IMG/VR virus record: IMGVR_UViG_2648501165_000020
Direction: 5' to 3' (one strand)
From: a virus
Lineage: Duplodnaviria; Heunggongvirae; Uroviricota; Caudoviricetes
Length of the DNA stretch: 22,254 nt
Positions 6,001-9,000 of this stretch are shown piece after piece. A program made the position numbers. The first letter of the stretch is position 1. Every line of letters begins with the position of its first letter.

Positions 6001-9000
6001 GTGCTGCGTTCTGTGCTCAGTGCTGATGGTATCCCTTATGTTCTGGTGTTGCTGGGCGTGTGTACGGGGAGTAACAGCGTTGAGCGTTACCTGCCGGAGG
6101 TGAAGACATTAACCCATCTGGCTGGCGGACGCTGGGCTGAGTTCCATACGGCAAGGCGGGGATTTATCCGGCTGGGAAAACGACTGGGCTTTGAGCGAAT
6201 GCCGGATGATGAGGATGGCTTCATGGTGTTCAGGATAGCGGTCTGACTGCTACAGTTTTCATCATTGTGTTTAAACCAACATTGTAATTCACATTCTGAC
6301 CCTGCTCCGGCAGGGTTTTTTGTTATCCAGGGGGCCATTATGGGTGGAAGTAAAGGCGGTGGTGATACCAAAGTAAAACCAACAGCAGCGCAAATAGCAC
6401 AGGAAGAAGTGGCCTGGAAAGGGTGGCAGGATTACAAAAATATCCTCCGCCCGGCTGAAGATAACTTCATGGAAAAGGTCGATGACCTGAACAGTGAGCA
6501 GCAGTACGACAATATTGCTGGCACCACAAATCTGGGGTATCAGAAACAGTTTGGCGAAGCACGGAAGGAGCTTGCGGGTAATCTTGCTCAGTCCGGCGTT
6601 GACCCATCCAGTGGTCGTTTTAATGCGGTAATGAATGCGAACCAGAGTGACCAGGTAACCGGGCAGATTGACACAACCACACGGGGGCAGGTATCGCAGG
6701 CAGATAAGTATGTTGCCGGGCTACAGGATGTTGCTGCTCTCGGTTCTGGTCAGAAGGCGGATGCGTTACAGAGTTTTAACTCTCTGGCAGACAGCAGTCT
6801 GGCAAAAGCTAAATCGGATGCACAGGCGGCGTTTACGAAACAGCAGGGGCGAGCCTCTCTTGTTGGCGCTGGTCTGGGTGCGGCAGGTGCATATGCGATG
6901 CATAAGGCTGGCGGTAGCGGAGGAAGTGGCGGGGCTAAAACACCTGGCACCGGCGCTAATGCCATTCAGCATCAGGCTCAGAACTGGAGACTGTAATTAT
7001 GGAGTATGGCAAATACGAAACTCTCGCAAGGGCTGGTTATTCAGGAGCAGACCGCCCACAGGGTGACTGGCAGACGTCAGCAGCGCTGACACGCCAACAA
7101 TACGACGACTGGCGAACCAGATATTTGCCCCGCGTGGCAAGGCTGGCTGACCTTGGGGAGAACAACAGTCTGATGAATGCACAGCTTGCACGGGTGGGAG
7201 GCCTTGCCACTTCCAGTCTCCGTACAGCGCAGATGGCGCAGGATAACCAGATGGCGAGATACGGGGTAAACCGCCCGGATAATCCCGACAGTAATACGCT
7301 GGGGTTACGTAATGCCCTGGCAATTGCTGGCGCGAAAAATGGTATCCGTGAAGCCGAACAGGATCGCCAGATGAATATTCTGACGGGGGCTTCTGCACCG
7401 GCAAGACAGAAACTGAGTGTTGGCGGCCAACTGGTGGCAGCGTAAGGGGGCAATATGGGATACGGTTTACTGGATATTGCAAATCAGTCGCGGCGTGAGG
7501 CATTACAGGGAATAAGTGACGCAGACAGACGACGTGAAGAAATTGAGGCTGCGAACAAACAGATGGCGGCGCAACAGAAAGCGCAGAACAAGCAGAATAT
7601 CGGTACGGGCATTGGTACGGGGGCGGCTATTGGCGCATCCGTTGGTGGTCCTGTTGGTGCTGTTGCTGGAGCAGTAATTGGCGGCATTGCTGGTTCTTTG
7701 TTTTAAGGAGTGGTGAATGAGCGGATTTGCACAGGGGTTACTTGCCGGATTCAGCACCGTTGACCAGGCAATGACCCGTCGTAAGGAGCTTGGTCTGCGT
7801 GAAGCACAGCTTGCCCGGCAACAGAAAAATAACGAGCGCGATTTTGAGTTTGCGCAGTCTCAGTTTGAACATAATAAAAACGTTGATCAGCGGAACTTTG
7901 ATTACAGAGCCAAAGTTGACGACCGTAATTATGCACTGAAGGAAAGGGAGTTTAACGCTAACCAGAATTACCGGAATGCGTCACTGGGTATGGAGCAGCA
8001 GCGACTCCAGTTGCAGAAATACAACCAGCGACGGCTTGAGTATAACGATATGATTGCCCATAGCCAGCCACTAATGGAAGCGCTTGGAAAAGCAATTGAG
8101 GCTGGCGATCAGGAGGCTGCAACGCGTCTGTTCGGGCAGCTGCCAAAGGGACATCCATTAATTCTTATGTCAAACGAAGGCTATGCAGCGAAAGCGGGTC
8201 AGGCCGTGATCAACCTGCAAAAAATCTTTGGTGATAAGCCGGACATGGCGATCGATTCGCTGAATACCCCGGAAAATCTCGATGTGCTTTCCGGCGTGTT
8301 TGCCCCGGAACTACAACAGCGTATTGGCATGCCTGATTCAACCGGGGACAAAACGATAAAAGAGGCCAGGATTGGCAGTATCGTACCAGCGCAGCAGGAA
8401 GGGTACGTACTTATTGGCCTTGATCTCACATACAGCGATGGCTCCACCGCGCATAAACCTGTAACAGAATACGGCAGTGCGCACCCTGATGATCAAACCG
8501 TGCTGGCGATACCCGTTGATAAGGCTATCGCTCAGGTCAGGGATCGCAGCAAATTTGCAGAGATATCGAAAAATTATGGTTATTTTATGCCGAAGCAGCA
8601 GGGACTTTCTCTGAAAGAGCTTCAGAAGGGGGCCAGCAACGTAGCGGCGGACGCGATCAAGAATGGCGGTAATGCTCAGGCTGCGGTGGATGAATATTAT
8701 GCTGCGACTGGTTCACAACCGCATCAACAGAAAATTCAGCAACAAAAACTTCAGCAACAGGTTATCAACTGGGCGGGAGATGATCCTGATAAGCTGTCAT
8801 TTGCCAGAAATGTAGCGGCCCGTCAGCCTGAAATGCTGGAACCTCAGAATCAGAAATTGCTGGAGAACGGGTATGCGAATTTTCTCCGTATTCAAAAGGC
8901 CAGGGGGGAACAGGCCAGAGATGAAAGTGCTTCATCTGCATCTCAGTTTATCCGTGGACTGAAACAGAATTACGCCCAGTAATTCACGATATTCCATTAA

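Follow-up and report, generated by a model that had tools for sequence, protein, structure and literature searches.

The ejection operon of T7-type podoviruses encodes, in this order, the small hydrophobic protein gp14, which goes to the outer membrane, the mid-size helical protein gp15, which forms a tunnel and has no transmembrane (TM) segments, and the largest protein gp16, which goes to the inner membrane (PMC8954989). The cassette of N4, a T=9 podovirus with an ejected protein of about 3500 aa, consists of gp52 (150 aa), the 644-aa tunnel protein gp51 and the giant gp50; gp52 is a membrane protein, present in 12 copies in the tail lumen and forming pores in bilayers, and phage phi24B is likewise a T=9 podovirus (PMC13434306). 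Ejection protein families diverge below 10% identity (PMC13434306). How DNA and a protein of about 300 kDa cross the envelope in short-tailed Shiga toxin (Stx) phages, a medically relevant group that spreads Shiga toxin genes, was left as an open question in the study of phi24B, the sole structural work on this group (10.64898/2026.04.10.717836). Here we describe a stretch of 22,254 nucleotides from a tailed phage (IMG/VR record IMGVR_UViG_2648501165_000020, Caudoviricetes; hereafter the window) and, in particular, its small gene orf69. The reading that we favor, giving it slightly better than even chances, is that orf69 encodes a small membrane-inserting internal-virion ejection ('pilot') protein of 933W/phi24B-type phages, occupying the slot of T7 gp14 and N4 gp52.

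The gene and its elements are located in the window as follows.

7455-7706, plus strand: coding sequence of orf69, 83 aa plus stop, corresponding to orf69 of VT2-Sakai (BAA84352), gp49 of phi24B and PHROG 594.
7444-7450, plus strand: Shine-Dalgarno (SD)-like AAGGGGG of orf69, overlapping the orf68 stop codon TAA (7443-7445) and ending 4 nt before the ATG.
7461-7598, plus strand: N-terminal polar/charged helix, residues 3-48, delineated by the AlphaFold2 (AF2) model, the conservation table and periodicity.
7599-7703, plus strand: glycine-zipper hairpin, residues 49-83, delineated by GxxxG statistics, family conservation, the break in the AF2 model, a partial match to Gly-zipper_YMGG and the unit found in tape measure proteins.
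7644-7652, plus strand: G-G-P turn, residues 64-66, between the zipper helices (G65 in 118 and P66 in 116 of 134 family representatives).

According to the listing of open reading frames (ORFs) and the translation, orf69 runs from ATG to TAA over 83 codons and encodes MGYGLLDIANQSRREALQGISDADRRREEIEAANKQMAAQQKAQNKQNIGTGIGTGAAIGASVGGPVGAVAGAVIGGIAGSLF. The part up to residue 47 is polar and charged (8 K/R, 7 D/E), and residues 48-83, NIGTGIGTGAAIGASVGGPVGAVAGAVIGGIAGSLF, contain 12 Gly, 7 Ala, 5 Ile and 4 Val and not a single charged residue, the C-terminus (...AGSLF) being uncharged as well. Glycines in positions 52-56-60-64-68-72-76-80 form an unbroken i+4 ladder of seven GxxxG pairs, and an eighth, overlapping pair is formed by G50 and G54. 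Shuffled tails contain 3.3 GxxxG on average, and at least eight are obtained with P ~0.001, while for 37 consecutive uncharged residues, judged by shuffling the whole protein, P is ~0.0007. Coordinates, composition and shuffles thus agree with the first-pass annotation of this DNA, where an 83-aa product with a Gly/Ala/Ile/Val tail and GxxxG repeats had been noted. Antisense ORFs across orf69 (7484-7687 and 7503-7757, minus strand) are unsupported and are expected by-products of the Gly/Ala codon runs.

The product matches phrog_594 with E=1.9e-45; the function of PHROG 594 is unknown, and in the annotation of VT2-Sakai (genus Traversvirus) orf69 is a hypothetical protein. A word-indexed search yielded 38 relatives, most of them called 'bacteriocin' by NCBI, and distant ones among the relatives (31-53% identity, e.g. 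from Vibrio splendidus) retain both the MGYGL N-terminus and the zipper. In tblastn searches against phage genomes only residues 1-31 are aligned, the low-complexity filter masking the remainder. When 1.84 billion representatives were searched exhaustively with a profile, there were 558 clusters with E<=1e-3 and 135 with E<=1e-10, nearly all of them 76-90 aa long and matching the profile from end to end. Conservation was counted in 134 representatives, each less than 50% identical. G56 and G72 are invariant, followed by G68 (131/134), G76 (127/134) and G52 (118/134), with the counts for G65 and P66 as listed above; the C-terminal L-F and the MGYGL(L/I) start are conserved too, and the N-terminal part shows a conserved stripe of L5, G/A9, A16, G19, A24, E27, R30, N34 and L37. 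Judged from these alignments, the zipper tail is the most conserved part of the family, and since it is conserved across the 134 representatives, the zipper is not a chance feature of one sequence. A loss of the tail in homologues, proposed at the outset as the observation that would speak against the motif, is not what is seen among them.

The AF2 model of orf69, based on 66 sequences (mean predicted local distance difference test score, pLDDT, of 72), begins its first helix at residue 3 and is confident over residues 1-40 (pLDDT 76-89); the chain breaks at residue 64, and residues 65-82 form another helix. The tail is accordingly modeled as two helices of about 15 residues split by the conserved G-G-P, that is, as a hairpin and not as a single spanning helix: helix A comprises roughly residues 50-63 (G52, G56, G60), G64-G65-P66 form the turn, and helix B comprises residues 67-83 (G68, G72, G76, G80), closing in the conserved L-F. 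The periodicity of conservation peaks at 100-105 degrees, the alpha-helical value, in the N-terminal part (P ~0.07), and at 90-95 degrees in the tail (P ~0.03), the latter reflecting the i+4 ladder. In one homologue (P0138) an Ala/Thr/Val-rich insertion of about 100 aa separates the two zipper helices, an arrangement compatible with a hairpin of two helices.

The zipper half of the orf69 profile also matches long proteins (811-1402 aa), and all of these are tape measure proteins, having Pfam TMP_3 and several tape-measure PHROG matches. Gly-zipper_YMGG (PF13441) scores 67-90 bits in four of the five, and 28.5 in the fifth, for a cut-off of 28.9; orf69 itself has a partial match to this family (25.7 bits, E=9.4e-6), just under the same gathering threshold, and several of its close and distant homologues have a precomputed PF13441 hit. 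The zipper unit is repeated 5-8 times per tape measure protein, an example being IGAAIGAIAGGPVGALIGAGIGGLVG, to be compared with TGAAIGASVGGPVGAVAGAVIGGIAG of the orf69 tail, and the central G-G-P is common to both. The unit of about 32 residues, GxxxGxxxGGPxGAxIGAxIGxLxG, is identical in the two groups, including the central G-P turn, and the tape-measure repeats, taken singly, reach 14-30 bits with the profile of the orf69 family. Moreover, the best match of orf69 among PDB sequences, though not significant, is a like segment near the C-terminus of the tape measure protein of phage Mu, a protein that fills the tail tube and leaves with the DNA. Tape measure proteins are virion-carried and expelled ahead of the DNA, and they are thought to form membrane channels (PMC10240207). 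The difference lies in the arrangement: in tape measure proteins of long-tailed phages the repeats are internal to a protein of 800-1400 aa, while orf69 of a short-tailed phage is free-standing and consists of a single unit and a 48-residue helix.

Two other groups of glycine-zipper proteins have similar features. The zipper of Tde1, a DNase effector of the type VI secretion system (T6SS), permeabilizes the inner membrane of E. coli, G-to-L substitutions in it abolish translocation into prey, and its authors likened it to tape-measure zippers (PMC10240207). Tde1 and orf69 share consecutive GxxxG motifs in a protein that is, or would be, delivered; in Tde1 the zipper stands at the N-terminus of the same chain as its DNase cargo, whereas orf69, lacking a cargo domain, would have to act in trans; the likeness is one of motif. 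The second group comprises the 2TM Gly-zipper lipoproteins of the outer membrane, SlyB, YfgH, OsmB and YiaD (Pfam Rick_17kDa_Anti and Gly-zipper families), which share with the modeled orf69 tail the hairpin of two short GxxxG helices; SlyB and its relatives are embedded in the membrane and assembled into rings of about 11 subunits. Partial matches of orf69 to YiaD- and PdsO-type models span the zipper and are far below the cut-offs. The signal peptide, lipobox and periplasmic domain of the SlyB-type proteins are all missing from orf69, whose context is the phage virion and not envelope stress.

The name 'bacteriocin', given to the family by RefSeq/PGAP (e.g. in NC_000924 (933W), NC_010237, NC_028660 and KT898134), would make orf69 a microcin or a secreted Gly-rich peptide of the class IIc type, active in killing competitors. 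The Gly-rich tail, and no other part, produces sub-threshold matches to Pfam Bacteriocin_IIc (PF10439; 19.7 bits, gathering cut-off 27.1) and MccV (11.6 bits, cut-off 27), and no NCBIfam model passes. A double-glycine leader, i.e. 15-30 residues ending in GG, is absent, the first GG being at residues 64-65 within the zipper, and the N-terminus is instead the conserved 48-residue charged helix. Neither the window nor 14 related loci (see below) contain an ABC/C39 exporter or an immunity gene, and the gene always lies inside the phage virion block. With scores below cut-off, no GG leader and no export or immunity genes, identity as a bacteriocin was rejected; its probability is close to nil, and the database name of the family is wrong. 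Correcting it matters, since the name has spread through RefSeq and, as described below, had led to a real proteomic detection being discarded.

The setting of the gene points to the virion. The 2.2 kb at 6900-9100 are 99.9-100% identical to short-tailed Stx-converting phages in 186 records, among them Stx2_EH0505, VT2-Sakai and 933W-like phages, and on this identity the window is a short-tailed Traversvirus-type Stx prophage. The genes around orf69 are listed below.

706-2409, plus strand: nozzle, by neighborhood annotation.
2406-3674, plus strand: tail-tip fiber, by neighborhood annotation.
5845-6246, plus strand: orf66, 133 aa, which opens the conserved block (phrog_610, synteny).
6340-6996, plus strand: orf67, 218 aa, gp51 of phi24B (phrog_611, weak match to phrog_8003 'virion structural protein', synteny).
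6999-7445, plus strand: orf68, 148 aa, gp50 of phi24B (83 spectral counts, structure-derived copy number given as 'ND', synteny).
7717-8982, plus strand: orf70, 421 aa, gp48 of phi24B (179 spectral counts, synteny).
9013-17433, plus strand: orf71, 2806 aa as an ORF, gp47 of phi24B, a giant polyvalent protein (Pfam LPD5, LPD1, MuF_C and LPD38; PHROG 616).

The gaps between orf69 and its neighbors orf68 and orf70 are 9 and 10 nt, and both SD sequences overlap the preceding stop, that of orf70 (AAGGAG, 7705-7710) overlapping the orf69 stop codon. No terminator-like site or hairpin was found on the plus strand between 6617 and 9015, so that the earlier placement of orf69 within an operon stands. 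The order of nozzle, fiber, orf66, orf67, orf68, orf69, orf70 and then the giant is kept in 14 independent loci, drawn from NCBI genomes, ENA, Logan, JGI and IMG/VR, in which identity of orf69 goes from 81% down to 31%. In each of them orf68 stops a few bases upstream of orf69, and unrelated genes (encoding Arc, ANT, PIN, an outer-membrane protein and others) are inserted only outside the orf66-orf70 block. The giant gene lies several kb from the block in some of the loci, with orf69 still between orf68 and orf70. The block is ordered in this way in phages of Vibrio and other hosts, and the same gene row is present in Aeromonas phage phiARM81mr, where a 'bacteriocin' is annotated amid 'putative virion structural proteins'.

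Direct data on the virion come from the phi24B preprint, in which virions purified with chloroform, a sucrose gradient and a Freon cushion were studied by cryo-electron microscopy (cryo-EM) and proteomics (10.64898/2026.04.10.717836). The neighbors of orf69 are present in these virions: batch-digest spectral counts are 82 for gp51, 83 for gp50, 179 for gp48 and 746 for gp47, all four proteins are missing from the cryo-EM structural model, and gp47 was proposed by the authors to be an ejection protein (10.64898/2026.04.10.717836). The orf69 product itself, gp49 ('E. coli bacteriocin', 47581-47838 of phi24B), reached 13 counts overall, 6 of them from the batch digest, and was classed as contamination 'based on functional annotation' (10.64898/2026.04.10.717836). 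Its peptide EALQGISDADR is identical to residues 15-25 of orf69 in the window. The authors' formula, applied to these counts, gives about 6 gp49 copies per virion, probably an underestimate, since the 37-residue C-terminal tryptic peptide has no K/R and is unlikely to be detectable, about 46 of the 83 residues lying outside it. Peptides usable as targets in mass spectrometry (MS) searches are GYGLLDIANQSR, EALQGISDADR, EEIEAANK and QMAAQQK. The text of a 2025 proteomics paper on enterohemorrhagic E. coli phages (PMC12502783) does not report small proteins. In phi24B the adaptor lumen contains a diffuse unassigned density, which is gone in ejected particles (10.64898/2026.04.10.717836).

The block can now be compared with the ejection cassettes. 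The hydrophobic orf69 (83 aa), orf70 (421 aa, without a hydrophobic run) and orf71 (2806 aa) follow each other in this order in the 14 loci. Since orf69-orf70-orf71 reproduce the T7/N4 cassette pattern, orf69 is read as a minimal membrane-inserting ejection protein. Like T7 gp14, P22/CUS-3 gp7, N4 gp52 and the outer-membrane channel protein of DEV, it is the hydrophobic member of the cassette, encoded upstream of the mid-size helical and the largest protein; its copies would number about twelve at most, and it is expected to come out first, into the host envelope. A scan for hydrophobic runs shows that orf69 alone among orf66-orf71 has a long uncharged hydrophobic run, and orf70 has no uncharged run of at least 18 residues; the latter is an abundant virion protein and a candidate tunnel-type ejection protein. 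The cassette differs from the known ones by two extra small virion proteins, orf67 and orf68, and members of the class of orf69 generally have 150-240 aa and one to five predicted TM helices. We best describe orf69 as a minimal membrane-inserting protein of the ejection type, built from the tape-measure zipper unit.

Several observations weigh against this assignment. Confidence of the AF2 model is low in the tail (pLDDT 52-64). The tail is only marginally hydrophobic: its best 19-mer comes to +4.95 kcal/mol of apparent insertion energy when computed with the Hessa biological scale, the values of which are reportedly those of Hessa et al. 2005; the comparators from the window are -5.2 kcal/mol for the helix of the Hok/Gef toxin and +1.3 for the Lom signal peptide. 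Searches of solved structures gave no known ejection protein: none of the PDB sequences matches the orf69 profile below E=0.09, Foldseek of the AF2 model against PDB returns zero hits, and orf70 and the orf70 family profile retrieve nothing significant. The gp67 protein of the Bcep22-like phage JC1, an MS-verified virion protein in the same slot, was tried as a homologue and rejected (hhalign probability 13%, hmmsearch negative), being a positional analogue only. The gp14-like proteins have 181-240 aa with 4-5 predicted TM helices (PMC8954989), compared to 83 aa and one hairpin of orf69. One distinct gp49 peptide is found in the portion of the phi24B supplement consulted, and the batch counts of gp49 (6) equal those of Lom (6) and are near those of Bor (5), both outer-membrane proteins. 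The presence of Lom and Bor in the virions is probably carry-over, and a late-expressed membrane-associated protein could co-purify as they do, so the proteomic detection of gp49 taken alone is weak evidence. Finally, the data favor neither the outer nor the inner membrane as the target of orf69.

The co-purification of Lom and Bor bears on another explanation, in which orf69 is not a virion protein at all and acts late at the membrane of the producer cell, as a holin- or antiholin-like lysis accessory, a superinfection exclusion protein or a depolarizing factor. The product is small and has a hydrophobic C-terminus, its MS signal does not exceed those of Lom and Bor, and in PHROG its zipper, but nothing else of it, weakly matches part of an 'endolysin' family. 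Still, in the 14 loci and the Aeromonas phage the gene always lies in the virion-structural block, never beside lysis genes; PADLOC defense models give no match; the C-terminus, being uncharged, has no charged tail typical of holins; and about +5 kcal/mol argues against autonomous insertion. In these three respects, location in the virion block and not in a lysis cassette, marginal hydrophobicity and an uncharged C-terminus, orf69 departs from holins, and we consider a role in the producer cell improbable.

The Kyte-Doolittle maximum over 19-mers of the tail is 1.69, orf69 has neither a signal peptide nor a lipobox, and its hydrophobic element is at the extreme C-terminus; because of these features it looks able to stay soluble or chaperoned and to enter a membrane only as an oligomer. 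Such entry is the described behavior of glycine zippers (Kim et al. 2005, as given in PMC10240207). Of the glycine-zipper membrane helix initially proposed, the motif is real and strongly conserved; a classical TM helix is not there (Kyte-Doolittle about 1.7, Hessa about +5 kcal/mol), its place being taken by the hairpin. Similarly, the suggestion of a membrane-inserting module had missed the virion context, though a membrane-engaging role is plausible from the ejection-block context and the tape-measure zipper.

In phage P1, incorporation of DarB depends on an ordered Dar chain of Hdf, DarA, DdrA and Ulx. By analogy, orf69, tightly linked to a DarB-like/LPD polyvalent giant and present in low copy number, might be a packaging or assembly factor that brings the giant and the other internal proteins into the procapsid, as recruiter or chaperone and possibly at the membrane of the producer cell, and forms no channel during infection. 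One natural fusion (protein P0072), in which orf69 residues 1-58 are joined straight to an orf70 homologue and the zipper is absent, suggests that the helix works physically with orf70; it may come from a defective prophage or be an assembly artifact, yet it hints at joint action of the two. A role in packaging would leave unexplained why conservation is highest in the zipper and lower in the N-terminal helix; the same unit occurs in ejected tape measure proteins, and in some loci the giant gene is kilobases away while orf69 stays between orf68 and orf70. We regard packaging as unlikely, though it is less improbable than the role in the producer cell. The probability that is left belongs to functions other than ejection, packaging, a late membrane role or a bacteriocin.

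For orf69 as an ejection protein, we infer the following course of events, in which ejection, oligomerization, membrane insertion, the target membrane and the binding partners are all conditional. The protein would be made late, translationally coupled to orf68 and orf70, and kept from the producer membrane by the marginal hydrophobicity of its C-terminal hairpin, probably shielded by a partner. It would be packaged at roughly 6-12 copies together with orf67, orf68, orf70 and the 2806-aa polyvalent protein, and expelled through the tail upon release of the tail needle on infection. Several hairpins might then enter the host membrane and pack side by side via their GxxxG faces, forming or lining the membrane-embedded part of a trans-envelope conduit, with the N-terminal helix docking on the periplasmic tunnel protein (candidate orf70) or on the N-terminal domain of the giant. 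DNA and the giant anti-defense protein would enter the cell through this conduit or alongside it. The analysis thus names the sole hydrophobic component of the internal-protein block, with G56, G72 and the G-G-P turn as mutable targets, and it connects tape measure proteins and T6SS effector translocation with the ejection proteins of podoviruses through one shared unit of sequence.

The giant protein has a glycine-rich element of its own.

10276-10329, plus strand: Gly-zipper-like patch of orf71, residues 422-439, GAAFGAAMGAPFGAVAGY, followed by RGRR (hydrophobic-run scan, positional conservation).

The first-pass annotation had mentioned Gly/Ala-rich hydrophobic patches in the giant protein. 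The patch, GVADATIEGAAFGAAMGAPFGAVAGY (residues 414-439), is real, and its position is conserved in distant loci (L002, L003, L007, L010, L011, L014 and L015), but only 18 of its residues are uncharged. As a homologue of the orf69 profile, residues 422-439 were rejected (3.4 bits, not significant). The patch and the basic cluster RGRR end the N-terminal domain (about residues 64-448), which is the portion kept in the most distant loci, the protein differing elsewhere; comparison of the orf71 N-terminus with solved structures gave nothing significant. The N-terminal 450 residues or so may serve the polyvalent protein as its delivery domain, and the patch with RGRR may be its own membrane-proximal element. 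A bolder generalization, which we put forward as a doubtful one, is that the Gly-zipper hairpin is a portable membrane-penetration unit of tape measure proteins, T6SS effectors and orf69, and that a SlyB-like ring of 10-12 copies, together with the Gly patch and basic cluster of the giant, forms a phage-supplied translocon that takes the polyvalent anti-defense protein of about 300 kDa and the DNA over the host membrane. The paper on polyvalent proteins (PMC5512222) makes no mention of 933W or of TM or glycine-zipper neighbors.

The annotated start of orf71 (ATG 9013) is probably wrong, and the true one is probably ATG 9052, since the PHROG 616 alignment begins at residue 14. A GC-rich hairpin with a T-run at 9015-9034 (plus strand) would then fall in the gap between orf70 and orf71 and might act there as an attenuator that adjusts how much of the giant is made relative to the upstream proteins.

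The Gly-rich C-terminus of orf67 had also been cited in support of a membrane function; it contains charged residues and a GSGGSGG linker and is not hydrophobic, so this argument is weak. Residues 134-195 of orf67 (6739-6924) weakly resemble positions 8-68 of the orf69 family profile (11.6 bits), the match covering a polar helix and the Gly-rich stretch after it, and an ancient duplication within the block could be the origin. In JC1 (OM283127, locus L008) gp67 (4906-5496) and gp64 (2858-3856) are virion-associated and have Gly/Ala-rich hydrophobic segments, with no detectable homology to orf69 or orf67, from which it seems that equivalent slots are taken by unlike Gly-rich proteins, depending on the podovirus lineage. 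The product of orf66 has no Pfam or NCBIfam match, and the gene comes first in the block in every locus compared; its slot in JC1 holds an annotated N-acetyltransferase (gp63), a positional equivalent.

Between the tail genes and the block lies the following element.

4681-5415, plus strand: lom, Ail/Lom family, 110 bits.

Its region (4681-5457) has GC content of 0.38-0.40 and its own terminator-like hairpin (5439-5457), and lom is a classic moron, inserted after the tail genes and ahead of the internal-protein block. Most of the distant loci lack lom at this position.

Downstream of the giant gene the minus strand encodes several identifiable elements. A bacterial OB-fold (BOF) protein of 114 aa (Pfam, 114 bits) is just downstream, at 17982-18326. 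A Hok/Gef toxin ORF of 70 aa (Pfam, 77 bits) lies beside a full-length sok RNA (RF01794, 112 bits) at 18446-18770, and together they make up a toxin-antitoxin pair of type I at the end of the prophage. Further on, a full-length match to Rfam sRNA-Xcc1 (RF02221, 69 bits) is found at 21075-21163, near an AntA/P22_AR_C antirepressor (20405-21034) and a DksA/TraR zinc-finger ORF (20136-20357), all of them on the minus strand.

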